A stretch of 52,503 bases of DNA from a virus (taxonomy: Duplodnaviria > Caudoviricetes), in the IMG/VR virus record IMGVR_UViG_3300033417_000012, positions 1 through 52,503 of that record; one strand, 5' to 3'. The notes under the pieces are model-generated. The model was not told the DNA's origin and searched no databases. It worked only from the letters and a program-made list of their open reading frames with translations. The translations under genes and the position numbers were made by a program. Below are positions 8,647-23,056 of this stretch, in pieces. Within the stretch, counting starts at the first letter, position 1, and every line of letters begins with the position of its first letter.

Positions 8647-8746
8647 GCTGCCTTTCCGGTAACTTGTAGCTGTCGCGTTCCCCTCTGGAGAAGGGGAGCT
8701 ACAAGCTACCGAAAAGGCAGCGCTCTCCAGATTTCCGGTCGCGACA
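8647..8746 (-). ncRNA. c4/CI-like structured RNA with upstream complementary boxes, 5' of initiator
   Basis: ~25-bp stem 8647-8671/8697-8721; loop UCUCCAG and segment CGCGACA complementary to boxes at 8724-8730 and 8740-8746. Confidence 0.65.
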
Positions 8747-8929: not shown

Positions 8930-9077
8930 AGCAAACCAACACCGAGCGCCGGGGGCCTCTTGCAAGCATCGTTGGATTGAGCACATTGACGCGCGCAGCG
9001 GTAACTGGAGGTCAGCATGGCACGATGTCGAAAGGGGGTCGCGCGAGACCCGCGGCGCTCGGTGTTGGTTTGTGCTC
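8930..9077 (-). ncRNA. Rod-shaped small RNA, putative antisense regulator
   Basis: Ends pair over ~20 bp (8932-8951 with 9053-9072); begins just after a consensus promoter. Confidence 0.65.
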
Positions 9078-9083
9078 AAATTG

Positions 9084-9111
9084 ATTATATATCAGGTTCA
9101 GGCCTCGTCAA
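9084..9111 (-). promoter_or_regulatory. Sigma70-type promoter TTGACG-16-TATAAT
   Basis: Near-consensus hexamers on minus strand. Confidence 0.75.
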
Positions 9112-9538
9112 CCATCTGGTCCAACATTTTAAGGTACTCCCATTCGGACAGATCTCGTCCGGCATCTTCTATCGTCTTTGCTATTTCCCGTTCCGATGTC
9201 CAGGCATCGATCTCCTCTTTGTGGAGCTTCCACTCTGGAGGGAATGCGGCGACGAAGGACCATTTGAAATCCTGGTGCAGCACGACAGCGGGGTGTACGC
9301 CCTGGTTGATGTGCTCCTTTGTGACGCGCCCCCACTTCTCATGAAAGTAGTCTGTCAGGATCGAGAGCGCGAGATCGGCCGGTCCGCTTCCTCCGTAACC
9401 CCACTCAAAACCAGTGGGGCTATGGTGCTCCACGTGCTTAAGTGGGTGTGAGTAAACGAGTCTTTTTTCGTAGTCCTCGATTACGACGATGACGTGCGGG
9501 TCAGGCAGTCTTCTGCCGCTATACGTTTTGATTGCCAT
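9098..9538 (-). CDS. DUF6166-like protein
   Basis: HSPTGFEWGYGGSGPADLALSIL motif. Confidence 0.7.
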   Translation of the reverse strand: MAIKTYSGRRLPDPHVIVVIEDYEKRLVYSHPLKHVEHHSPTGFEWGYGGSGPADLALSILTDYFHEKWGRVTKEHINQGVHPAVVLHQDFKWSFVAAFPPEWKLHKEEIDAWTSEREIAKTIEDAGRDLSEWEYLKMLDQMVDEA

Positions 9539-9752
9539 TGCTTGTGCTCCCTCCGTAGTTTTTCCAGGACAGGTGAATGAAGCGAAACCGCTCGATCTGG
9601 CGGGCTGCTATTGTGTCAACGGCCTCGATGACCGTTCCGTCTGCAACCTCCCGTTCTCGAAGGATGTATTGTGCATGGGAGCGAGATCGTCGGAGGTCCT
9701 CGACGATCCACTCTTCGCCCCTAGGAAAGTGAACGAACGGGCCTGTGCTCAT
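9519..9752 (-). CDS. Hypothetical protein
   Basis: ATGA coupling. Confidence 0.5.
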   Translation of the reverse strand: MSTGPFVHFPRGEEWIVEDLRRSRSHAQYILREREVADGTVIEAVDTIAARQIERFRFIHLSWKNYGGSTSNGNQNV

Positions 9753-10039
9753 GGTCTGTACCGAACGTCTTCGAGCATCGGGAACGCTGCTCGAGCCACG
9801 CCTTCGACCATTTTGCACCCGTAGCTTTTGACTTCATCGAACCCCGCTTCATGACCTTGCGTGCTGGCCCCGAAGTAGCAAGCCCAGTCAAACGGGTCCC
9901 AATTGAAGATCGTTACAGATGCTATTATGTACAGACCGTAAGCGCCCTGCTGGTTGAAGTATTGATACAGGTAGCCTTTTCCGTTTCCGGTCGCGTCCAG
10001 ATTCAGTATGTCGTAAAGAGCTTCATTGTGTTTTGGCAC
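9749..10039 (-). CDS. Hypothetical protein
   Basis: AGGAGA RBS, GTG start. Confidence 0.6.
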   Translation of the reverse strand: MPKHNEALYDILNLDATGNGKGYLYQYFNQQGAYGLYIIASVTIFNWDPFDWACYFGASTQGHEAGFDEVKSYGCKMVEGVARAAFPMLEDVRYRP

Positions 10040-10042
10040 GTC

Positions 10043-10294
10043 TTATCTCCTGTTGTATGTCTCCATCGTGCCGCACTTCCTGCAAGTGCGCACATAAATG
10101 GTGGCTCCGGTATTGATTTGTCTGTAGGTGCTGACAACATCTGGATGGATCATGACGTTGCAGTCGTGGCATTGATGCCCTGCGATGAAACCGATCTGTC
10201 GCCTGTCCTCCTGGGTTGTTAGCGAGTTTTCCACCTGACGATAACCCTCGGATAGCGCCCACTGGAAAAGGGCATTGAAGTTTTTGAAGTGCAT
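10043..10294 (-). CDS. Zinc-ribbon protein
   Basis: CHDC...CRKC; AAGGAGG RBS. Confidence 0.65.
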   Translation of the reverse strand: MHFKNFNALFQWALSEGYRQVENSLTTQEDRRQIGFIAGHQCHDCNVMIHPDVVSTYRQINTGATIYVRTCRKCGTMETYNRR

Positions 10295-10311
10295 GTTGCC
10301 TCCTTGGAATC

Positions 10312-10399
10312 AAAAAGGCGCCGCCCCTGCGTCAAGCCCGTATCGTTTGCTCAGGAGGTGCTTACGGGTATGGGCTAAGTGTCACGACAGGGGTAGCGC
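10312..10399 (-). ncRNA. Stem-loop RNA with anti-leader loop GCACCUCCUGAG, followed by a U tract
   Basis: Outer stem 10318-10333/10384-10399; inner stem; loop 10350-10361 complementary to the early-gene leader. Confidence 0.65.
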
Positions 10400-10404
10400 T
10401 TGTA

Positions 10405-10608
10405 TTATTTGCTTCGGTCCAGTAGCGCGACCAGGTTTTTCAGTTGCTCAACCAGACGCGTTAGCGCGTCTATGATTTGGGACAGTGTAAGGATAACCGC
10501 AAAGAGCATAAAACACACCCCGCCAACAACACTTACGGCAGGGACGCTCTCAAAGTACACAGCGGCTCCGAGTACGGCGATCGTAAATCCCAATGCTGCG
10601 AGTTTCAT
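10405..10608 (-). CDS. Small membrane protein
   Basis: Two TM segments, ATGA coupling. Confidence 0.65.
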   Translation of the reverse strand: MKLAALGFTIAVLGAAVYFESVPAVSVVGGVCFMLFAVILTLSQIIDALTRLVEQLKNLVALLDRSK

Positions 10609-11690
10609 CGCACGCGCTCCGCAAGGTCGCGTTCAGCGATTCGAGCGTGGATCAGTTCACCCGCCATCACTTCCATGTTCTCGCGGGTGTCGTTGCTCTC
10701 GATGCCCCCCGCGACGTCCGTTGCGTGGTTGATGACATCGAACAGGGAAACGCGACCCTCCCTGTTCGCCTGCATCTGACACAGGTTCAACCATTGAGTG
10801 CCTGCATCAACCACGATCCCGTACTTCTTGTTCCAGCGCTCGACGATATTGCTGACGGATGTGGCTTCGATCAGGGTTGAGCGCGTTTCGAGAAATGCGG
10901 TCGCGGCTTCCTCGCTCATGTTCATGGCGTCGGCGATCATTTCATTGACCAGCAAACCAAGGTGTTGATTGCTGCGGCCACGATGCACGAGACTGTTTTG
11001 GCGCTCGGTGCGGTATCCGTAGATCAGACCGTTCATGCAATAGGATCGATAAAGCCCTGCATGGACTCGAACCTTCCCCGTTCCGATCTCGCTGTTGCTG
11101 ATATAGATGGCGGGTTTCATGCCTCCAGCGCCTCCACCGTCGCCGTTCGTGATGTTTCCGTTTCGATGCTCGGTTGCACCGAAGTCGATTCCTTCCACAA
11201 GGACGTAAGTCCTCAGTTCATCCCCCACCTGTGGTCGCCACACCCTCACGTCGATCCCCGCTCTGGTTATCGCGTCGCTGATCGCATCAACAAAGTCGAT
11301 GTGATTGTAAACGCCATAGCGATTTGAAAGAACAGCGCGCGTGATTTCGCCGGACGGTGTAATGCGATTTCGTAGTAGAAAGCGCTTGTCGTAGTGCGCC
11401 AGCTTCCAGTTTACGATCTCGCCTCGAAGCTCGTCTGGGCAGCGACCTTCGTCCCTGGCCCACCCTGCGGGGATGTCGAGCCTCCCGCAAAGCTGGTTGA
11501 AGGCGTGATCGTTAAGATGCGTCTGACGAAAAACGTTCCCTTGCGCCTGCTCACCGATGATCTGGTCCACAAAGAAATTGCTTGTGTATTCCAGTGCGTG
11601 AGGGGAGCAAGTGTCGTCATAACAGGTCTCGTGCCAGTCCTGCACCTGTTCCTTCAGGTCTTTCAGGGTTGTAAAGTGATTTCGTGCCAT
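10605..11690 (-). CDS. DUF932-like protein
   Basis: HAFNQLC...RAVLSNRY...ISNSEIG...YCMNG motifs. Confidence 0.75.
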   Translation of the reverse strand: MARNHFTTLKDLKEQVQDWHETCYDDTCSPHALEYTSNFFVDQIIGEQAQGNVFRQTHLNDHAFNQLCGRLDIPAGWARDEGRCPDELRGEIVNWKLAHYDKRFLLRNRITPSGEITRAVLSNRYGVYNHIDFVDAISDAITRAGIDVRVWRPQVGDELRTYVLVEGIDFGATEHRNGNITNGDGGGAGGMKPAIYISNSEIGTGKVRVHAGLYRSYCMNGLIYGYRTERQNSLVHRGRSNQHLGLLVNEMIADAMNMSEEAATAFLETRSTLIEATSVSNIVERWNKKYGIVVDAGTQWLNLCQMQANREGRVSLFDVINHATDVAGGIESNDTRENMEVMAGELIHARIAERDLAERVR

Positions 11691-11722
11691 GATAGTGCGC
11701 CTCCTTGTGTTGTGGGGTGTGC

Positions 11723-11998
11723 TCATTCCCCGTCGGAAAAAACGCTATTGATCTTCTCAAACACGTACGCCGTCAGATCTCCTTTCTCCAGGTTTACTTT
11801 TCTAAGGGCACGGGACATTGCCATGCGAACAGAGTTGTGTTTGATGTCGATCTGATTCGCGATGTACTTGTTGTCCTTCCCCATAGCCGACAGCTTGAGG
11901 ATAAGAAGCTCGCGCCTGCTCAAGGTGTACTTGTACTCGCGGAACGGCTCGTCAAGAATTCTCCTCAATTCGAGTAGGGTCAGGTCGCTTTCATCCAT
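11723..11998 (-). CDS. LuxR-type HTH transcription regulator
   Basis: LSRRELLILKLSAMGKDNKYIANQIDI. Confidence 0.75.
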   Translation of the reverse strand: MDESDLTLLELRRILDEPFREYKYTLSRRELLILKLSAMGKDNKYIANQIDIKHNSVRMAMSRALRKVNLEKGDLTAYVFEKINSVFSDGE

Positions 11999-13181
11999 CG
12001 CTTTTTTGCCACGCTTTGATGGTGCGCTCTCCAAAGCGTTTGTTCACGCTCTGGTTGTCGTGGTTCTCTCGCGCCCAGGATGTCGTCGCTTCCTTCGCTG
12101 CACTTTCGGATGTCTTGTGCTCCGGTCGAACCGTGTTGTAGATTTCCAGCCAATCGCTGATCCACTTCCAGGGATCATCTTCGCGGAACGGTGACTTGTT
12201 GAGTCTTCCCTCGATTTGCTGAGGCGGGGCGTCGGCGAGTTCCTTGAAGTTTTCCCTGATCTTCGTGACGATTTCGTTTCCCCAGGTGCGAGAGCTTGTT
12301 GGCTTGATCTCTCGCGGTTGCTCGTTATCCCAGGGGTTTGCGTCGGGCCACAGTTCGCTTGCTGCATCGGAGACTACCTTTTTTCTGGCCTCAGCGGTCT
12401 CCTCGTCTTCGATTTCTGCCTCCTTCTCGACCTCGCGCCACTGCGCTTCGGGGATGTACTCCTCGATGGTTTCACCCTTGAAGGAGCCACCAAGCGGAAG
12501 ATCGAACATCTGCTTGATCGCCATCATGTAAGCGCGCTTCTGTGTTCGCTCGACGTGAGTCATTTTGTTACTTGAGTCACGGTCGAGGTTTGCCATTTCC
12601 TCTTTGGTGAGAATTCCGAGACCAAATACGAACGGCGGTTCCGCTCCCAAGCGTCCGAGTCCAATCTCAAGACCCTGTTTGCGCGCTTCGACCACGCTGT
12701 CCACCGCCATCTTCCAGGTCTGTACGGTTTTGTGGTCGTAGATTGCGCACTCCCAGGCCATAGCACCTTCGGGCACACCCAGGGTGTCACGGCGATCCTT
12801 GTCCGTGACCTGCGTGTATTCGGGCCAGAAGTGCGTTCCGCGTTCCTGGGCTTGCTGGTGAGCGTGTCGCAGCAGGCCTCGTCGTCCAGGCATGATCTGG
12901 AATTTTCTTTCACCGTGCTTGGTGACGTACACCCAGGCCCAAATCTCCCCGTTGAATGGGTTCAGTTGGGTCGCTGCGCTGATCTGCGCTAGGTGCGCGG
13001 CCTCCGACGCTTTCATCTTGTGCTTGCCCGTGTCCAGCTGCATGATCCTGCGCGTCATTTCGTGCAGGGCCTTGGATGGACCATAGGGGACAAGCGGGTG
13101 GAGCCACTCGTTTGCGGACTTAACAATCTGCTTGTTAACGTCCACGCCCAAGCTCTCCTCGAACACGGATTCGTCTGTCAT
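11991..13181 (-). CDS. RecT/Bet-like single-strand annealing protein
   Basis: LNPFNGEIW, G..GLLR.A, KRA...AIK..F; acidic C-terminal extension. Confidence 0.65.
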   Translation of the reverse strand: MTDESVFEESLGVDVNKQIVKSANEWLHPLVPYGPSKALHEMTRRIMQLDTGKHKMKASEAAHLAQISAATQLNPFNGEIWAWVYVTKHGERKFQIMPGRRGLLRHAHQQAQERGTHFWPEYTQVTDKDRRDTLGVPEGAMAWECAIYDHKTVQTWKMAVDSVVEARKQGLEIGLGRLGAEPPFVFGLGILTKEEMANLDRDSSNKMTHVERTQKRAYMMAIKQMFDLPLGGSFKGETIEEYIPEAQWREVEKEAEIEDEETAEARKKVVSDAASELWPDANPWDNEQPREIKPTSSRTWGNEIVTKIRENFKELADAPPQQIEGRLNKSPFREDDPWKWISDWLEIYNTVRPEHKTSESAAKEATTSWARENHDNQSVNKRFGERTIKAWQKSDG

Positions 13182-13272
13182 TTGTAGTACCTCCTGTGTG
13201 CTAGGGGTCGATCCGAATTGATCGCCCACGACCGCACCCTACGTTGTAAGGTGCGGAACGTCGAAGATCAAT

Positions 13273-13509
13273 TTATAGCGACCAGTCCTTCGACGACTTG
13301 TATCGCCCTGCGACATAGGTCATGCCGCAGTCGGTTACGAATGTCACTTCACCGTCGGTGTCTCCAACCGGCTCCGATAATGTGCGCTCGCACTCCACGT
13401 TGAACAGATCGAGAAATTCTTGCGTACCCTTAAGGTCGGTGATGCGCGCTTTGCAAGCTCTGTGATTTGGGCACTCCCCCTCGAACAGCACGGGGATGGG
13501 GTTGCTCAT
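13273..13509 (-). CDS. Hypothetical protein
   Basis: AGGAGG RBS, coupling. Confidence 0.55.
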   Translation of the reverse strand: MSNPIPVLFEGECPNHRACKARITDLKGTQEFLDLFNVECERTLSEPVGDTDGEVTFVTDCGMTYVAGRYKSSKDWSL

Positions 13510-13908
13510 TTGCGGCCTCCTTTCACGGGCCAGTTGGGGTGATAGACCTTGATGGTTTCACCTTCAGGATGCGAGTCCTCCGGTCGCGCTACGCGGACGA
13601 AGGATTTCAGTTTGGGCCAAGCTCGGAATACCGCTTCATCTGCTATCTGCGGATCGCCTGTCAGTTGATAGCGCAGCGTCCACAGTTTTACTAGCGCGTC
13701 ATGGTCGGGCGTACTCACTTCGTTTCGTCCTTCCAGCCGCACTTCTCGCAGCGCTCAGAGGGGGGGTCTAAATCCTCGCCGCACTCCGGGCAAATCCCAT
13801 TTTCCAGACAGACGCACATTTCCAGCAAACGTTCGTATGCGACGGTCGATCCCCAGGGGTGCGCCTGGGATGTTTCTATCCAGCCTCTTCCCATGCAGTA
13901 TTCGCACA

Positions 13909-14106
13909 TCATTGTTGCTCCCTCTCTGCCCATCTCACGCGGTCTATCAGCAGCATGGGACACCACTGATTGAGTTTCGCCCACTCCCTTAGCGCCCTGA
14001 GTTCTAATTCTGTAACTTCTATGGGCGTGCAACCGGAGGATGGTTTTTCGTTGAAGCTCGCTGTTCCATCGTAGTAATTGTGTACGTCAACATATATCGT
14101 CGGCAT
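13909..14106 (-). CDS. Hypothetical protein
   Basis: Operon context. Confidence 0.5.
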   Translation of the reverse strand: MPTIYVDVHNYYDGTASFNEKPSSGCTPIEVTELELRALREWAKLNQWCPMLLIDRVRWAEREQQ

Positions 14107-14120
14107 GTTATCCCCTTTCT

Positions 14121-14414
14121 CTATGGCTCATCCTTGATGAACAGCATGTTTTCGCTGTCCTTGATTTTGTATAGCACTCCAGGAATGTCGTAGGTCATTC
14201 TGAAAAACTCACACTGCACGGCGTGAACCCTACCGTCCTCGTGATGACGCGCCAGCTTCAATTGAATGGGCCAAGCGGTGATTTTCAGATCGCTCAACAG
14301 AAAACCACCAGACACATTGATGTCCCTGGCGTCCACCTCGACGATTCCGTTTTCGTTTGGTTCAACGTCTGGCTTATGCACATACACTTCGGGCATTTCA
14401 CGATCTCCTTTCAC
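14121..14414 (-). CDS. Hypothetical protein
   Basis: AAGGAG RBS near MPEVY. Confidence 0.55.
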   Translation of the reverse strand: MKGDREMPEVYVHKPDVEPNENGIVEVDARDINVSGGFLLSDLKITAWPIQLKLARHHEDGRVHAVQCEFFRMTYDIPGVLYKIKDSENMLFIKDEP

Positions 14415-14522
14415 CTGTTTGTGGATTTGTCACAGAACGCGCCAGGATTGAATCTAAGCGATTCGGTGATGGATCACCCGTTACCCACAGAAAAACCGCT
14501 ATTAGGTCCCATTATGCGCTCT

Positions 14523-14912
14523 CTAGTGGTTCCCTGACATAAATTGTGCACTGAATTCCACGACCGAGAGCACAAAGGACAACTGATGCAGGTTCATGAC
14601 GCCGTTTTCGTCGTCGCTGACATAGGGTTTGAGGCGCACATGAAGTGCATAGGCGGGTGAGGTCGGGATAGCGGGTCCGTGCTTGGTCTCTTTGTCGCCC
14701 CATACCAGCAGGAAAAACAGGAAGAATAGTGGTTCAACTTGCCAGCGGTCGAATTCATGCAGCACGTCGAGTGCGGCTGCTGATGCTAGGTCTTCGCGCT
14801 CCTCTTCGTTTCTGGCAAACTGGATGCGGTGCGCGTGCTCTCTGGTGATGGGGTCGAGTCGTTTGCGCAGTTGTCGCGCGCGGTCGATCATCAAAATGTT
14901 TTTGTGTGGCAT
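14523..14912 (-). CDS. Hypothetical protein
   Basis: AAGGA RBS before MPHKN. Confidence 0.55.
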   Translation of the reverse strand: MPHKNILMIDRARQLRKRLDPITREHAHRIQFARNEEEREDLASAAALDVLHEFDRWQVEPLFFLFFLLVWGDKETKHGPAIPTSPAYALHVRLKPYVSDDENGVMNLHQLSFVLSVVEFSAQFMSGNH

Positions 14913-14933
14913 TCGATTTGTCCTTTCGTGTGT

Positions 14934-15140
14934 ACCTACCCCCACCTACCCTACCCCCCCTGCCAGCCATCTGTGGGGTTGCGGTGCGTTAAGGCTGTGG
15001 TGGGCTGTGGGCTGTACCTACCCCCTATCTACCCACCCTACCCACCCACCCTACCCCCTGCCGTTTTTCGCGAGGGCGGCTGTGGGCTGTGTGGCGGCTG
15101 TGGGCTGTGTGGCTGTGCGCTTTTCCCGATATAGGGAAAA
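14934..15140. repeat. Cluster of TACCC and GGCTGTG polar repeats plus palindrome TTTTCCCGATATAGGGAAAA
   Basis: Directly visible low-complexity motif cluster. Confidence 0.85.
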
Positions 15141-15267
15141 TTGCCGGAGCCGTGCCGGTGGGCGAACTCCGTGCCGGTGGGCGAGGGTTTTGAGCGTCGC
15201 CAAGGGCAAGCAGCCAGGGATCGGGGCGCGCTTCACCCTTCTCCCTGGCTACACTTTCCTGGGTGCA

Positions 15268-15543
15268 CTAATGGTCGATCCAGCCGGTCGTGTCTTTGCC
15301 CTGTCGGTCGAGCAGCTTATAGATGCGGTTTTGGGCGTAGTTCGGGGGCAACCAGTGACCGTTTTCGCACAGGCAGGATGCTACGGCGATGTCGGATAGC
15401 GTGATCTCGTTGTAGCGCCCTTCCGTGTGCTTGACGTAGAGGTCGTTGGCCCACTTCGAGACCTGTGGCGACGATTTTTCATAGTGGACGACGATTCGCC
15501 CGAAAAAATACTCGACCTCGCTGAAAAACTGGATGGCGTTCAT
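15268..15543 (-). CDS. Hypothetical protein
   Basis: ATGA coupling, MNAIQFF start. Confidence 0.6.
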   Translation of the reverse strand: MNAIQFFSEVEYFFGRIVVHYEKSSPQVSKWANDLYVKHTEGRYNEITLSDIAVASCLCENGHWLPPNYAQNRIYKLLDRQGKDTTGWIDH

Positions 15544-15773
15544 CGATCGCCGTCCTTTCCGTACCATGTGGCCTCGACCCACTCAAGCGTGCCCGGAATC
15601 TGTCGTTCGTTTCTGATGTCCGCGCCATAGGATGCGAAGATAAAGCGGGTGAGGTTTCGGCGTGACGGGTTGATGTATGTCTTTTGCCTTGGATGGGCGT
15701 TAACATAGACGTTCTGCTGCCCGTTGAATTCGTTCAGGTCGATCAGGCAGGTCTTTGGATAGTATTTGCCCAT
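15540..15773 (-). CDS. Hypothetical protein
   Basis: MGKYYPK start right after radC-like stop. Confidence 0.6.
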   Translation of the reverse strand: MGKYYPKTCLIDLNEFNGQQNVYVNAHPRQKTYINPSRRNLTRFIFASYGADIRNERQIPGTLEWVEATWYGKDGDR

Positions 15774-15774
15774 G

Positions 15775-16260
15775 TCAGAACCCCAAACCTCTCGCTTTGA
15801 GCGACACGAAGCGCCCTTTGCCGATGATGATGTGGTCGAGCAACTGGATTCCAAGCAACCTTCCGGCATCAGCGATTTCTGCGGTCACGCCCACGTCTTC
15901 TGGGCTTGGACTTGGGTCGCCGCTTGGGTGGTTGTGAACCACGATGATCGCGGCGGCGTTCTTGATGATCGCGTCTCGAAACACCTCGGCGATGCGCACC
16001 ATGTTGCTGTTGAGTGTGCCTTTGTAAAGCTCCACGATCTCGATGACGCCGTTGCGAGAGTCCAGTATGGCGACGCGAAAGTGTTCCTGTTGAAGCGCCG
16101 ACATTTCGTAAAGCAGCAGCGCTGCAACGCTTTCGGGCGCATCGAATCTCACGCGGTTCGGCTGGTCCTCTGCGACCTCTCGAAGAACGCCCATAAGACC
16201 ACCGAGATCGCCATTGCATATCATGGTTGCGACCTCCTGGGCATTGTCCTTGTAGGACAT
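15775..16260 (-). CDS. radC: RadC-like JAB/MPN domain protein
   Basis: QEHF...VHNHPSGDPSPSPED...LLDHIIIG. Confidence 0.9.
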   Translation of the reverse strand: MSYKDNAQEVATMICNGDLGGLMGVLREVAEDQPNRVRFDAPESVAALLLYEMSALQQEHFRVAILDSRNGVIEIVELYKGTLNSNMVRIAEVFRDAIIKNAAAIIVVHNHPSGDPSPSPEDVGVTAEIADAGRLLGIQLLDHIIIGKGRFVSLKARGLGF

Positions 16261-16349
16261 TGTGCACCTCCTGTGTGCCTAATTAGGGTCGGATCACCCT
16301 CGGACAGGGCGCTGCCAGCGAACAGCGCCCTGCTGCGACGGAGATCGAC

Positions 16350-16838
16350 CTATCTCCTACCGTTTTGCCAGGGCATAATCAGCGCCCTGCGTTTGTGCGT
16401 GGTGAACTCTTTGGCGCCTTCCAGAACGTAGGCCCTGTTCTTGCGGGTCTGCTTGATGGCGACGAAGCGGAGACCCTTTCCGATGTCGGCGAAGAAGGCC
16501 GGGTCGATGTCGAAGCTCTCGATGGGGATGGGCGACCCTTCTTGGTGGTACTCCCACAGGCCGTCGATGTCAGGGTATTGGCCCTCGTAGGGGCGAAGGG
16601 TGATGGTCCCGTTGTTCAGGTGGCTATGAACCAGTTGGTACAGGCCCGGTTCCACTTTGAGATCGACTTCGTTGAGGTCGGCGCGGTGTGCTCTAATACC
16701 GTCACTGGCGTCGAGCGTTGCGCCCGTCCAGCGGATCGCGGACAACACGGATTCGTTGTCCTTTTTCTTGGTGGCGAGGGCGACCCATCGCGCGGTCTCG
16801 ATGACCTTTTTCTCGGCATTGATGGTCGTTTCGTTCAC
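16350..16838 (-). CDS. Beta-sliding-clamp-like single-domain protein
   Basis: VLSAI...ASDGIRAH...EGQYPD pattern; GTG start after leader motif. Confidence 0.5.
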   Translation of the reverse strand: MNETTINAEKKVIETARWVALATKKKDNESVLSAIRWTGATLDASDGIRAHRADLNEVDLKVEPGLYQLVHSHLNNGTITLRPYEGQYPDIDGLWEYHQEGSPIPIESFDIDPAFFADIGKGLRFVAIKQTRKNRAYVLEGAKEFTTHKRRALIMPWQNGRR

Positions 16839-16927
16839 GATTGCACCTCCTGAGTGCTTTTTGTTGGGGGCGAATTCCCCAGGGACGCCCTGGAACCTGC
16901 GCTCCAGGGCGTGACCTTGAAAATTCG

Positions 16928-17263
16928 CTACCATCCTGGCGGGGACCAAAGCTCGCTTTCGAAGGCGCTCTTGAGTACCCGTCGCCATGCTTTACCGTAC
17001 CTTCGGCAACACACGCAGACACAGTTCTGGCTATAGGGGTGGTTCTCCAGTTCCGGCTTGTACCAAGTGGCGACGATCCAGGTTCGCCCCATGTCTTCGT
17101 ATGTGTCCTTGTAGGTGGCGCTGTCCACCAGTTTTTGCAGTCGCTTCATGCTCGATGGCGTTGGGTTTTCGTGCACCCGATAGTCGCCCCCGATTCTGCT
17201 GTTGGGATAGACATAAACGGCGCGTTCGTCCTGGTATAGCCCCGCAACCACTGTCTTAGTCAT
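16928..17263 (-). CDS. Hypothetical early protein
   Basis: Coupled to upstream gene. Confidence 0.6.
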   Translation of the reverse strand: MTKTVVAGLYQDERAVYVYPNSRIGGDYRVHENPTPSSMKRLQKLVDSATYKDTYEDMGRTWIVATWYKPELENHPYSQNCVCVCCRRYGKAWRRVLKSAFESELWSPPGW

Positions 17264-17450
17264 CGCCCTTCTCCAGTAGCCGGTCGAGGTATTCCGACGC
17301 CGCTTCTAGGTTTCCTTCGAGCGTGCCTTGGGACTCCATGTCCTCAAACTCGCGTTCGGCCATAGCGATATTGCGCTTGGCCTCGTCGTAGGAGAAGCCC
17401 ATATCGATCAAGTTGAGTATCGATATGTACTGCCAGCATCTGTCGCTCAT
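17256..17450 (-). CDS. Small acidic early protein
   Basis: GGAGG RBS, coupling. Confidence 0.6.
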   Translation of the reverse strand: MSDRCWQYISILNLIDMGFSYDEAKRNIAMAEREFEDMESQGTLEGNLEAASEYLDRLLEKGDD

Positions 17451-17779
17451 GACGCCCTCCGTGTTTCGGAGTGGTCGTCGTTGACGCCCGTTGCTTCGTC
17501 GAGGAGCGCCGATTCATCGTCCAGGCCATCGAAGAAACCACCGTACTCGGCGTCTTCGAGCATGACAGCTGCGCCGTCCAGGTCATCCCCAAGAAGATCC
17601 ATAAGGATGCCGGAAAGCTCTGCTCGAATCGGGTTGCCAGTCTGGTTGCACTTGAACCCAATGCCCGTACAACCCTTGGAGTAAAACGCGTCCTTGGCCT
17701 CCTTGAAGGTCATGCCGGGTATGTCGTGGAGTTCGTCAAGCCCTAGCGGTTCGCCGCAGCGCCTACAATAGATGTCCAT
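17447..17779 (-). CDS. Acidic zinc-binding early protein
   Basis: MDIYCRRCGEP; leader motif upstream. Confidence 0.7.
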   Translation of the reverse strand: MDIYCRRCGEPLGLDELHDIPGMTFKEAKDAFYSKGCTGIGFKCNQTGNPIRAELSGILMDLLGDDLDGAAVMLEDAEYGGFFDGLDDESALLDEATGVNDDHSETRRAS

Positions 17780-17884
17780 TTGTGCACCTCCTGAGTGCTT
17801 GGGCCGTATTGCCCAGGGGTGCGCAGGAACCTACCCTACCCAGGTAGGCTCCTGCGCACAGTCTGGATCATACGACGACGACGG

Positions 17885-18550
17885 CTATGCAGTTTCGGCT
17901 GTGGGCTGTGGAGCGAAGTTGTCCTGCCAGCGCTTGCTTTCGGGCTTTGACCACCCTGGCGTTTCCTTTACCCGCCGAACAGGGCGACTCGACATGATGA
18001 ATCGTTCAAGCTCATCCATGTTGTTGTTGGCGAAGACCTTGGTGATGAGGTCCTTCGCCTGTTCCTCGGTTCGGGCGATCACGGTTTCCCAATGACGCAC
18101 ACTGCCTTCCACCTTGTCTTTGTCAACCATCCAGCCTGGGTACTCATTCGGCGGGAAGTCGAGGTAGGTGGAGATCGGCGTGAGGCCGTTGGTCCGGCCG
18201 TCGTTGACGACCTCGGTGGCGATGTCTTCAAGCCTGTTGCACAACTCGATGGGCGTCGGGGTGCTGTTTTCTTCTTTCGGCATGACCCGATACACCACGG
18301 CGGTCGCGTCTTTCCATTCCTGGCGGGTGCTGCTTTCGCTAGGCTCGATGCTCATGCCGTACCAGTGGGTCGCTTCGCTGTCGGTCTGCCACCGAAAGGT
18401 GACAACGGGCCGAAAGTACGGGCTGCTGTTCCAGTGAACCAGCGAAATGTCACGCCAGATCCGAACAAAGCCGATTGTGTAACGGCCCTCATGACGAATC
18501 CAGGTATCGAAGGCGAGCTTGGTCTTGATAGCCATTTTTCCGTTCAACAC
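17885..18550 (-). CDS. Hypothetical early protein
   Basis: Leader motif immediately upstream. Confidence 0.7.
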   Translation of the reverse strand: MLNGKMAIKTKLAFDTWIRHEGRYTIGFVRIWRDISLVHWNSSPYFRPVVTFRWQTDSEATHWYGMSIEPSESSTRQEWKDATAVVYRVMPKEENSTPTPIELCNRLEDIATEVVNDGRTNGLTPISTYLDFPPNEYPGWMVDKDKVEGSVRHWETVIARTEEQAKDLITKVFANNNMDELERFIMSSRPVRRVKETPGWSKPESKRWQDNFAPQPTAETA

Positions 18551-18634
18551 GTTGCACCTCCTGAGTGCGGTTGTTGGGGCTGGATTGCCCCCGCACGCCC
18601 CCTTCCCGATATAGGGAAAGGGGCGCTCCGGCGA

Positions 18635-18880
18635 TCATCCAGCTTTTATCCTAAGTCCGGCGTCCAGTCCTTCGCCAAGCAGGGTATTGATTATTCTGCC
18701 TGACGCTCTCTCAACGATAGCGAAATCGTTCATGCCCCAGGGGACCAGCCGGTATCTCTGTCGAAATACCCGCTGGCCCTTCTGTCCGATACGCCGGTAG
18801 TGTTCCACACCATATCGTTGCAGGGTGGCGATACCCCCCAACCTACCCCGTTCTGCCGGTGTCATCGGTCTGTCGCTCAT
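18635..18880 (-). CDS. KGG-repeat-like basic protein
   Basis: ERGRLGG...RRIGQKG. Confidence 0.55.
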   Translation of the reverse strand: MSDRPMTPAERGRLGGIATLQRYGVEHYRRIGQKGQRVFRQRYRLVPWGMNDFAIVERASGRIINTLLGEGLDAGLRIKAG

Positions 18881-19092
18881 GCAGGCTGCACCTCCCTCGC
18901 AAGGGCTGTGTAGATGCGACCCAAGCGCTTGTGCCCGCACGGGGTTTCGCCGCTGAACCAGTCGTTGTGAAACTGGAGAACGGCGACTGCACCTTCGCGT
19001 TGCGCCTTCGTCATTTGGGAGATGGCGTCCCGAAGCTGCTGTTCTGCTTGCTTGGCGTTATCGTCCCATTCCTGCGCGTTGAACTGTGCCAT
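18877..19092 (-). CDS. Hypothetical early protein
   Basis: MAQFNAQEW after leader motif. Confidence 0.7.
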   Translation of the reverse strand: MAQFNAQEWDDNAKQAEQQLRDAISQMTKAQREGAVAVLQFHNDWFSGETPCGHKRLGRIYTALAREVQPA

Positions 19093-19173
19093 GATGTGCA
19101 CCTCCTGTGTTCTAAGGCCCGGATTGGCCTCCCTCCGCGTTGGAGCACGCGCTCCAACGCGGAAGGCGATCAA

Positions 19174-19395
19174 TCAGAGATTCCAGACATTGGGCGAGTC
19201 CGTGAAAGCGACCAGGAGTTTCAGGTCGCCCACCTCGTTTCCGATAGCCTGGATGGTTCGATTGACAAACGTTTCCTGCGATGGCGTCAGGTCGTACCCC
19301 TTGATGGCGTGTACCTGACGTTGCGCCTGTTCGAGCGTTTGGACTGCAAGCTCGATGCGCCCGACTGCTGCTTGGAATTCCTCTTTCGCTGCCAT
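19174..19395 (-). CDS. Hypothetical early protein
   Basis: MAAKEEF start after upstream stop. Confidence 0.55.
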   Translation of the reverse strand: MAAKEEFQAAVGRIELAVQTLEQAQRQVHAIKGYDLTPSQETFVNRTIQAIGNEVGDLKLLVAFTDSPNVWNL

Positions 19396-19399
19396 GATG

Positions 19400-19648
19400 T
19401 CAGAGTCCAGTCCCGATCCAGGGCCGCTTGGAAGCTGCTGCCCTGATCGCTTTGGTTGTTTCTTCGATGGCGGTGTCGAGGTGGAGGATGACATCCTGGT
19501 ACAGGCTATACAGGTCTTCACGGCTCACGTCGTCGTTCTCGATCAGCCATGTAAGGTCTTCTTCCATGCCTGCGTGTGCAGACTGGAGGTACTGTCGAGC
19601 GGCGACCATCTTTGCGCTGTACTTTGCGAGGTTGGCCTTGACAGTCAT
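19400..19648 (-). CDS. Hypothetical early protein
   Basis: GGGGGTG RBS, MTVKANL. Confidence 0.55.
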   Translation of the reverse strand: MTVKANLAKYSAKMVAARQYLQSAHAGMEEDLTWLIENDDVSREDLYSLYQDVILHLDTAIEETTKAIRAAASKRPWIGTGL

Positions 19649-19652
19649 GGCG

Positions 19653-19934
19653 TCACCCCCGCTTCCAGGGGTTCTTGAACGGCGTGTTGCTTTCGAAGCG
19701 TCGCCTGTCCCTGTCAAACTCGTTCACGTAGTCGCCACGGGCGTTCATCAGGTCTTCCACAGAGCAGCCACCCTGTTTCACGAACGCCATCGCGTCACAG
19801 TCTTCCTCCAGATAGGCGTAGTTCCTATCGTAGAAGCTGTACGCCGTGAAGGTCATGCCCTCAACGGCTTCGATGGGTACGGACAGCCATGCGTGACCAG
19901 GATCCTGGATCCAACGAACGTCTTTTGTTGCCAT
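19653..19934 (-). CDS. Conserved-looking phage early protein (DPGHAW...YLEEDCD)
   Basis: Leader motif upstream; motif typical of phage hypotheticals. Confidence 0.7.
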   Translation of the reverse strand: MATKDVRWIQDPGHAWLSVPIEAVEGMTFTAYSFYDRNYAYLEEDCDAMAFVKQGGCSVEDLMNARGDYVNEFDRDRRRFESNTPFKNPWKRG

Positions 19935-20025
19935 GTTGCACCTCCTGAGTGCGAATGTGATAGGTCTGGATTGACCTACCCATTCAGCCTTGCAAGTACC
20001 CTACCCTGCAAGGCTGAGGGGGCTT

Positions 20026-20358
20026 TCAATCCTGTGCTTGGGCCATGCGAGCGATCACCGGCTGTGCGGTGTCGAGAACCCATGCGATCTCGGCGGCTAC
20101 TTCGTTGAGAACCAGCGATTCGAGGTAACAGGCGACCCGATGCTTGCAGATCACCCCTTCGGCGCTGCGGTACACGCTGTCCGGGCATTCGCAGGTTTCA
20201 ATGGACGCGTTGTACTGCGATCGCCAGCTTTGGTCGTCTTGCATTAGATACCCCAAAGCGGCGCGCAGTCGTTTGTCATCGAGGAAACCCTTGCGCCGTT
20301 CGATATTGAAGTAGCCCATCAAGATCGACAGATGAAGCGGATTGTGCCTGTCGATCAC
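20026..20358 (-). CDS. SWIM-type zinc-finger protein
   Basis: CECPD...CKH. Confidence 0.7.
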   Translation of the reverse strand: MIDRHNPLHLSILMGYFNIERRKGFLDDKRLRAALGYLMQDDQSWRSQYNASIETCECPDSVYRSAEGVICKHRVACYLESLVLNEVAAEIAWVLDTAQPVIARMAQAQD

Positions 20359-20430
20359 GGTGCACCTCCCTGGCGAGGGGATACCCTACCCGAAGGATAC
20401 CCCCTTCGCCCTTCCACCCTGGGTCAGCCG

Positions 20431-20547
20431 GTGGGCTGTGTGACCCTGGGCTGTGCGGCTGTGTACCCTACCCTACCCTACCCGCTGCCTTTTGAGCTTT
20501 CGAGGCGCATAGGCTGTGGGCGGCTGTATTACGGCTGTGCGGCTGTG
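20431..20547. repeat. Second cluster of GGCTGTG and (TACCC)4 repeats
   Basis: Directly visible. Confidence 0.85.
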
Positions 20548-20776
20548 CAAAGATCGCGCGACGCCGCCGAGCGCCGGGCTCGCCCAGCGAGTGGTTAGGC
20601 GGGTGCCGGAGCCATGCGCATAGTCGAAATGCCCAGGGCAAACCTGGGCGCGCGGATAGGGCCGAGTGCAAGGTCATTTAACGACCTTGCACCATGCGCG
20701 ACCGCGTTGGTCGCGCATGGTGCAAGATTCAGGAGCACGCGCGGTCGCGCGTGCTCCTGCTAGTGCACTCCTGATT

Positions 20777-21166: not shown

Positions 21167-21256
21167 GATCTTATGACCTCCTGAGTCATACAATCGCGAA
21201 TCCGGATTGACTCGCGTGCTCCGCGTTGCAATCACTTGCAACGCGGAACACGTGAT

Positions 21257-23034: not shown

Positions 23035-23056
23035 GAATTGCACAGGAGGTGCGAAG

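Follow-up and report, generated by a model that had tools for sequence, protein, structure and literature searches.

The element described here is a hairpin in an intergenic gap of a tailed-phage genome, record IMGVR_UViG_3300033417_000012 of IMG/VR. The record (52,503 bases, estimated 73% complete) was analysed over its full length, which is called the window below. The plus strand carries, starting at about 29 kb, genes for the terminase large subunit, the major head protein, a tail protein and a tape-measure protein; between about 22 kb and 1 kb the genes are on the minus strand. The hairpin lies within this leftward part, and the genes with family matches that flank it (DUF932, DUF6166, RecT and GerE/LuxR) are all on the minus strand. 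An earlier note on this DNA had read the gap as a discrete small RNA of the middle phase of infection, with a loop antisense to the ribosome-binding leader of several early genes. The features of the locus are as follows, in the direction of leftward transcription (SD, Shine-Dalgarno sequence).

10405-10608, minus strand: upstream gene, encoding a hydrophobic protein of 67 residues; it is start/stop-coupled to the DUF932-like gene, whose stop codon shares the sequence ATGA with the ATG of this gene.
10400-10410, minus strand: A-rich 5' flank of the hairpin, AAAUAAUACAA, which contains the stop codon UAA (10405-10407) of the 67-residue gene.
10318-10399, minus strand: compound hairpin of 82 nt; its G+C-rich base has 11 bp, and there are internal loops and a loop of 9 nt at the apex.
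10350-10361, minus strand: 12-mer complementary to the leaders, GCACCUCCUGAG, at the hairpin apex; part of it, CACCUCCU, is a generic anti-SD core.
10312-10316, minus strand: tract of five U, one base past the hairpin (GGCGC-C-UUUUU-GAUU).
10043-10304, minus strand: downstream gene, 83 residues with CxxC pairs; its SD, AGGAGG, is at 10299-10304.

The minus strand of positions 10300-10410 folds with a minimum free energy (MFE) of -39.1 kcal/mol (z -3.96), and none of 200 shuffled sequences was equally stable. The nested stems followed by UUUUU that had been noticed at this place were thus recovered. The MFE of the hairpin alone (10318-10399) on this strand is -34.4 kcal/mol, and a scan for U runs also picked it up, with the same energy and the tail CUUUUUGAUU. 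The apical loop of 9 nt reads ACCUCCUGA on the minus strand and is closed by a stem of two G-C pairs; in the ensemble its bases are mostly unpaired at 0.8-0.9. The hairpin begins 5 nt past the UAA of the 67-residue gene and therefore stands at the 3' end of the early message. From the U tract to the SD of the next gene there are only about 12 nt.

A G+C-rich stem-loop on the transcribed strand, a U-rich tract 3' of it and the end of a gene upstream, three marks of intrinsic terminators, are all present. An A-rich 5' flank combined with a U-rich 3' flank is typical of strong or bidirectional terminators; here the 5' flank, when read on the plus strand, is itself a U-rich tail, giving the element the shape of a bidirectional terminator. 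We consider the hairpin to be an intrinsic-type terminator, or 3'-end hairpin, of the leftward early messages, with a probability of roughly 0.6. The fold, the U tract, the position after a stop codon, and the complementarity and accessibility of the loop are shown; termination itself, as well as any effect of the loop, we infer.

The surroundings of the hairpin leave little place for an independent transcript. A scan of the minus strand for sigma-70-like promoters found none between 14511 and the hairpin, the nearest upstream site being at 14540-14511; this is a weak test, as the promoter type of the host may differ. Downstream, the nearest minus-strand promoter-like site is at 9111-9084 and is near-consensus (TTGACG-16-TATAAT). 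The proposed discrete middle-phase small RNA was therefore not borne out, the hairpin being placed as the 3' end of an early message, and the leaders and the hairpin would lie on one transcript. The position after the stop codon, the A-rich flank and the lack of room for a promoter thus point to a terminator regulated by read-through rather than to a free-standing small RNA gene. Since no promoter fits between the hairpin and the next SD, the genes from 10294 to 9098 must be reached by read-through. A search of the whole window against Rfam gave no match at the gathering score, and no tRNAs were found; with E values up to 10, the region 10200-10500 gave only two weak unrelated matches, both outside the hairpin.

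Three further structures were seen near the hairpin or elsewhere in the window. On the minus strand, a 9-bp hairpin can form at 10295-10317 between the SD of the next gene (CAAGGAGGC) and the U tract with its flank (GCCUUUUUG). Because this pairing is available, the SD of that gene (start 10294) may be masked in read-through transcripts, as judged from predicted folds. At 8648-8742 (minus strand) there is a second very large hairpin, with -55.5 kcal/mol on the minus strand versus -41.6 on the plus strand. It adjoins the SD of gene 8628-7777 in the same layout as the element studied here, that is hairpin, U-rich spacer and AGGAGG. Finally, positions 1466-1487 hold a canonical bidirectional terminator, which has T runs on both strands and a stem of 9 bp closing a loop of 4 nt.

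Several observations weigh against the assignment of the hairpin as a terminator. Its size is not that of a canonical terminator, with a contiguous stem and a loop of 3-8 nt, and it is absent from the 15 terminator-like sites of a simple consensus scan, which missed it because of the interrupted stem and the 9-nt loop. The U tract is short, with 5 U only. A plain terminator needs no apical region of 20 nt and leaves the exact 12-mer match described below unexplained. The stem is also better on the non-transcribed strand: as a plus-strand RNA the hairpin alone reaches -42.2 kcal/mol, 7.8 more stable than on the minus strand, and the whole region folds on the plus strand with -45.5 kcal/mol (z -3.50, 1/200 shuffles equally stable). 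Three G-U pairs of the plus-strand stem correspond to A-C mismatches on the minus strand, and one case is the reverse. In all eight of the other hairpins tested (seven leader hairpins and the one before gene 8628) the minus, transcribed strand was the more stable, and the terminator at 1466-1487 was about equally stable on both strands. The three-versus-one asymmetry is not significant alone, yet its direction is opposite to that in the rest of the phage, and on these model energies it counts mildly against an RNA role of the element on the minus strand.

We then consider the word at the apex. The loop word GCACCUCCUGAG is the exact complement of CUCAGGAGGUGC in the leaders of four early genes; this part of the earlier note was confirmed, its leader coordinates being off by one base. 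Written as CTCAGGAGGTGC, the 12-mer has exactly five copies in the window, one on the plus strand at the hairpin (10350-10361) and four on the minus strand. It was found in 0/100 dinucleotide shuffles of the window, and simple arithmetic gives about 0.003 exact copies expected per strand. With up to one mismatch there are 8 matches versus 0.31 expected, the additional ones being at 16264-16275 and 19098-19109 on the minus strand and at 23041-23052 on the plus strand. Allowing two mismatches adds 13187-13198 and 21174-21185, to which the near matches previously placed at 13189 and 21175 correspond, while those at 16264 and 19098 have a single mismatch. The minus-strand copies all lie 6-8 nt ahead of start codons. 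No plus-strand gene uses the hairpin copy as its own ribosome-binding site: only ATG-GGC-TAA follows, 11 nt after the SD, compared with 6-8 nt in real leaders. The plus-strand gene that, by the earlier note, would have refuted its idea is thus absent.

Much of the word is of a general kind. Eight of its 12 letters (CACCUCCU) form the generic anti-SD core, which we take to be identical to the conserved 3' tail of 16S rRNA, and therefore only four letters (CUC and C) are leader-specific; a match of these four has a likelihood of about 1 in 256 by arithmetic. The 8-mer has 9 copies in the window versus 1.41 expected. Eight of them are SDs preceding start codons, and the ninth, in antisense, is the hairpin loop. 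The extended SD of the leaders is AGGAGGUG. The leader sites complementary to the loop are listed here with the net pairing energies explained below.

16843-16854, minus strand: SD hairpin in the leader of gene 16838-16350; exact complement, -16.1 kcal/mol.
17784-17795, minus strand: SD hairpin in the leader of gene 17779-17447; exact complement, -13.0 kcal/mol.
18554-18565, minus strand: SD hairpin in the leader of gene 18550-17885; exact complement, -17.9 kcal/mol.
19938-19949, minus strand: SD hairpin in the leader of gene 19934-19653; exact complement, -17.8 kcal/mol.
16264-16275, minus strand: leader of the RadC-like gene 16260-15775; one mismatch, -12.4 kcal/mol.
19098-19109, minus strand: leader of gene 19092-18877; one mismatch, -12.5 kcal/mol.
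23041-23052, plus strand: leader of a rightward gene starting with GTG at 23056; one mismatch, -13.0 kcal/mol.
13187-13198, minus strand: leader of the RecT-like gene (start 13181); two mismatches, -9.8 kcal/mol.
21174-21185, minus strand: leader of gene 21166-20777; two mismatches, -4.5 kcal/mol.

These sites belong to a three-part leader module that precedes about nine early genes on the minus strand between 13180 and 21560. The first part is a long, near-perfect hairpin without a U tract; the second is a short hairpin whose loop reads either CAAUCCRG or some variant of this word (CAATCCRG was found on the minus strand at 18587, 19126, 19973 and 21209); and the third is the SD hairpin GCAC-UCAGGAG-GUGC. 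The first two hairpins could be processing sites, stabilisers or a protein-binding site. The MFE folds of the leaders of 18550, 17779, 16838 and 16260 show the stem GCAC(U)/(G)GUGC with the SD in the loop, in agreement with the earlier claim that the leaders expose their SD in a loop of their own.

Pairing of the loop with the leaders was evaluated with the apical 22-nt core as the pairing surface, the net energy being the sum of the hybrid energy and the opening energies of both partners. A curated list of 68 start regions (43 on the minus and 25 on the plus strand) was examined. A previous duplex calculation with the whole 91-nt RNA had given long interrupted duplexes without meaning and was replaced by this procedure. 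Opening of the loop costs 3.3 kcal/mol. Net energies of -12.4 to -17.9 kcal/mol were obtained for seven of the 68 start regions (18550, 19934, 16838, 17779, 23056 on the plus strand, 19092 and 16260), the next best values being -10.6, -10.0 and -9.8 kcal/mol. Corrected for accessibility in this way, the predicted energies are in the range of working pairs of small RNA and mRNA.

As a control, random 22-mers were drawn from the same transcripts: 34 of 1499 reached -26 kcal/mol or lower on some start region, and 40 of 1499 had at least four start regions at -20 or lower, the 10 such regions of the core being equal to the control maximum. The raw hybrid energy alone therefore does not single out the loop. 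Of the earlier interpretation, the complementarity, the accessibility of the loop and the net energies were borne out, whereas nothing in the analysis supports the host mRNAs that it named as possible targets. What speaks for pairing is that the match is exact and contiguous and lies at an accessible apex, and not energy alone. As to geometry, a 9-nt loop facing a loop of 5-7 nt, with at least 7 complementary loop bases, corresponds to that of known kissing complexes. Action of the loop in cis on the adjacent SD of gene 10294 was dismissed as the principal explanation, the match being only 6 bp (by eye) versus 12 bp to the distant leaders; in the MFE fold this SD pairs with the U tract and not with the loop.

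If the hairpin ends the early messages, its loop could in addition regulate them. Such regulatory pairing of loop and leaders, in cis or in trans and on top of the terminator role, is a coherent proposal that we hold to be less likely than not. In its fuller form, the hairpin RNA would have no gene of its own and would be freed by termination and decay of the early message to act as an antisense RNA with multiple targets. By a kissing contact of its loop with the SD hairpin of each of 6-7 early cistrons or more, either the 30S subunit would be blocked or a substrate of RNase III made, so that early translation is turned off. We regard this model as rather unlikely, although the following points favour it: the exact 12-nt complement is at the hairpin apex and absent from the shuffles, the four letters beyond the anti-SD core also match, the loop is cheap to open and reaches its net energies at seven start regions, and it fits the distant leaders far better than the adjacent SD. 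Precedents are the anti-SD motif UCCCCUG in the untranslated stretch at the 3' end (3'UTR) of icaR (PMC3868564) and the c4 antisense RNA of P1 (PMC8198154). The model suffers from the stem asymmetry, which favours the plus strand, from the raw duplex energy, which does not discriminate, and from the lack of a visible promoter of its own. Stoichiometry is a further difficulty, as each transcript would carry one loop for 8-10 leaders.

Related phages were searched for an independent view of the loop and the leaders. No phage record was matched by positions 9000-12000 in megablast, and scans of IMG/VR for close relatives with three proteins (DUF932-like, 83-residue, and a 532-residue open reading frame of portal size) gave none. 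The DUF932-like protein has 18 homologues, the best non-self match having 46% identity. A profile of 11 of these homologues found two viral loci and three metagenome loci (34-37% identity) and nothing in the genome contigs of species. Across phage records, IMG/VR, the metagenomes of the Joint Genome Institute and the species genomes, there was no relative closer than 46% protein identity, and the same leader was absent from all the distant DUF932-like loci. A leader 16-mer had 19 single-copy matches in IMG/VR, and two of these 19 loci (L012 and L016) carry three leader-like copies; a looser leader pattern gave 65 single matches there. The two-box pattern of the module had 0 matches in genome contigs, and a tblastx screen of 87 candidate loci returned no matches but those already found, L028-L030.

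Two of the genomes recovered bear on the regulatory model. The distant relative L007 (record G001) has a repeated leader of its own, with 8/8 copies on one strand and no antisense copy in the locus or in the whole record. L012 and L016 belong to records G002 and G003; G002 is an unrelated phage of 59 kb, without tblastx matches to the window at 1e-5, which carries the SD hairpin CAC-UCAGGAG-GUG ahead of three genes as in the window. All four of its leader copies are forward and none is antisense. Repeated leaders thus occur in both genomes without a copy on the opposite strand, which, on sequence comparison, counts mildly against a regulatory function of the loop. The use of the same leader hairpin by G002 indicates that the word is a favoured SD context, a leader form that recurs independently, and not a private code.

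The window sequence is present in 15 runs, all of DNA and none of RNA, and the contigs of four of them (X3, X5, X8 and X10) showed 0 differing letters over 10000-20200 where covered; one contig of X3 spans 10104-10708, and the hairpin is thus identical there. As a separate observation, in two distant relatives, L007 (7230-7720) and L028 (11000-11520), a non-coding stretch of about 500 nt follows the DUF932-like gene, and the two stretches have blocks in common. These blocks have no Rfam match, and the window has nothing alike at that place; they may represent an unnamed structured RNA.

The main neutral alternative to regulation is a common origin of the loop and the leaders by inverted copying. 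The loop would then be a functionless by-product, the remnant of an inverted leader module inside a terminator or stabiliser hairpin. It could have arisen by short-homology recombination between inverted leaders, or by template switching at the quasi-palindrome GCAC...GTGC followed later by a flip. Leader copies do occur in both orientations (23041 is on the plus strand), a RecT-like annealing protein is among the phage's gene products, the plus strand gives the better stem, and the leader of the unrelated G002 shows how commonly the word is favoured as an SD context. Likeness to the leaders was measured by holding the 12-mer fixed and shuffling its flanks, with 11 leader comparisons. Positions 10315-10379 of the plus strand aligned with the leader of 21166, including the GTCAAxCC box and ATGG(G)CTAAG, with a score of 17 versus 11.3 +/- 1.7 in the null, a value equalled by 0.017 of the shuffles. 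However, the value comes from the best among 11 comparisons and loses its significance after correction, and 10 of the 11 leaders show no extension past the 12-mer. An old neutral relic should not retain 12/12 letters amid unrecognisable flanks. The contrast between a perfect word and flanks without significant leader likeness suggests a constraint on the word itself, as the antisense model supposes; more broadly, this sequence pattern argues either for such a constraint or for the word being the site of a recombination junction. A recombination scar would leave unexplained the mutual pairing of the flanks over about 30 bp and the position of the motif exactly at the apex. We hold this origin to be about as likely as the antisense model, a possible but not a probable one.

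It is much less probable that the element acts as DNA or as a plus-strand RNA, for instance as a protein site used in either orientation, as a mimic of the leader or as a terminator of antisense transcription. The stable plus-strand fold of the region and of the hairpin alone, which is followed by UUGUAUUAUUU on that strand, would suit such a role. The leader core GCAC-N7-GTGC is a small palindrome with the geometry of an operator (by eye), and the early region is rich in DNA repeats confined largely to one strand (CACAGCC with 17 copies on the minus versus 4 on the plus strand, GGGTAGGGTA with 7 versus 0). However, the plus strand has neither a gene nor a promoter-like site upstream of the hairpin, and the left half-site GCAC is lost at 10346-10349 (TTGC), so that half of a palindromic operator is missing. 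SD function accounts for the fixed distance of 6-8 nt from motif to start codon that all other copies show. The least credible explanation is pure coincidence, the chance origin of an anti-SD-like word in a terminator loop: one orphan copy of the 8-mer core would be within chance, but the failure to find the exact 12-mer in shuffles, its low expected number and its apical position in an intergenic hairpin, which lowers chance further, lead us to regard chance as excluded at about 1e-3 or below.

The genes of the leftward region with a family assignment are given below. For the genes in 13-21.5 kb, the family search left the majority of the remaining ones without any family.

16260-15775, minus strand: RadC-like gene (family match).
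13181-11991, minus strand: RecT-like gene (family match).
12034-11723, minus strand: gene with a helix-turn-helix of the GerE/LuxR type (family match).
11690-10605, minus strand: DUF932-like gene (Pfam-supported).
9538-9098, minus strand: DUF6166 gene (family match).
8628-7777, minus strand: replication-initiator or DnaD-like gene (family match).

Divergent promoter-like sites were found at about 22,050 by the promoter scan. The one-strand repeats mentioned above are dense in two non-coding stretches of the minus strand, 14930-15120 and 20380-20560, which look like iterons, an origin or a regulatory array. Copies of GGGTAGGGTA include a (GGGTA)4 run near 20464-20483 and, for genes 20358, 19934 and 17779, are also present in the loop of the long leader hairpin. 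At position 15035 a contig of run X5 contains an extra CCCTACCCTAC; the copy number of the GGGTA-type repeat therefore differs between samples. On the plus strand, an open reading frame at 24931-25791 matches phage families of queuine tRNA-ribosyltransferases (phrog_887, E 4.6e-40). The usual connection of genes of this type is with the modification of phage DNA by 7-deazaguanine.

Returning to the favoured assignment as a terminator, the hairpin would close the leftward early block, from about 22 kb to 10.4 kb, which includes the genes for the RadC-like, RecT-like, LuxR-type, DUF932-like and 67-residue membrane proteins. It would form the protected 3' end of the early messages and mark a regulated boundary between early and delayed-early expression, the genes beyond being expressed by read-through. 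Its apex would be an inverted copy of the consensus SD leader of the phage, and each terminated early transcript would end by displaying an anti-leader loop. An extension of this scheme, which we consider improbable as a whole, is a timer based on the delay of transcription: the early operon of about 11.7 kb would take minutes to traverse, and the hairpin would be made last. As the most nuclease-resistant structure it would build up in the form of a 3' fragment some 90 nt long, and by kissing SD hairpins in 6-7 or more early cistrons, one of them on the rightward arm, it would shut off early translation. Duplex-specific cleavage might perhaps be triggered as well, and the system would be an RNA counterpart of the RegB protein of T4 contained in a terminator loop.

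If the regulatory proposal were true, it would provide a compact end to the early programme, a single terminator both stopping transcription and yielding a multi-target anti-leader RNA, and the terminator loops of mRNAs would join the known sources of riboregulators. If the loop is inactive, the case is still of use as a warning: phages commonly have repeated SD contexts, with two further examples found here, and an inverted copy can mimic an antisense regulator. A full-text search of the literature, judged by titles and the openings of abstracts, revealed no terminator-loop anti-leader RNA in a phage, which is not proof of absence.

With phage intrinsic terminators the hairpin shares the A-rich 5' flank, the G+C-rich stem and U run next to a stop codon, and downstream genes reached by read-through. 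It differs by its interrupted compound stem of 82 nt and its 9-nt apical loop, where those terminators have a short stem and 3-8 nt in the loop. The terminators tL1 and tR1 of lambda are timing terminators regulated by read-through; no antiterminator was identified for the present phage.

As a proposed regulator, the hairpin resembles an element of Staphylococcus aureus. In the icaR mRNA, the anti-SD motif UCCCCUG of the 3'UTR is complementary to the SD further 5' (PMC3868564). Both have a C/U-rich anti-SD word (CCUCCUG in the present loop), which in the phage would lie at the 3' untranslated end of the message with the complementary SDs further 5' on it; a block of translation and a substrate for RNase III are the predicted outcome. 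The icaR element acts on one SD of the same monocistronic mRNA from a long 3'UTR, whereas here the word is in a terminator loop and would face 6-9 SD hairpins of a polycistronic phage message.

Antisense RNAs of phages offer a second comparison, and the CI RNA of P4 is of the same kind as c4 of P1 and P7. The c4 RNA is located upstream of its targets, is processed, serves the immunity of a temperate phage and has two target boxes (PMC8198154). Common to c4 and to the model proposed here is a phage small RNA derived from the transcription unit of its own targets, pairing in trans with repeated sites that cover ribosome-binding sites. As no Rfam family, c4 included, was matched, the hairpin is not a member of the c4 family.

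The RegB endoribonuclease of T4 inactivates early messages through GGAG in their SDs (PMC1702504 and PMC3014915). The likeness lies in an early shut-off through a signal within the shared SD, and the difference in a protein nuclease as opposed to a proposed RNA loop; no RegB-like gene was reported for the window, in which no search aimed at RegB was made. C-rich hairpin loops of Gram-positive small RNAs (RNAIII, RsaE) are known to kiss SD regions. In Escherichia coli, terminator loops of small RNAs drive repression of fepA, 'likely without base-pairing' in the words of PMC11979758. In these cases too a hairpin or terminator loop is the regulatory surface, and they differ in being host small RNAs with promoters of their own. 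By analogy with these systems, the hairpin may be seen as a plausible variant of known anti-SD riboregulation. In structure its closest counterpart is the intrinsic terminator; as a proposed regulator, it would be closest to the icaR 3'UTR element, to c4 and, in its logic, to RegB.

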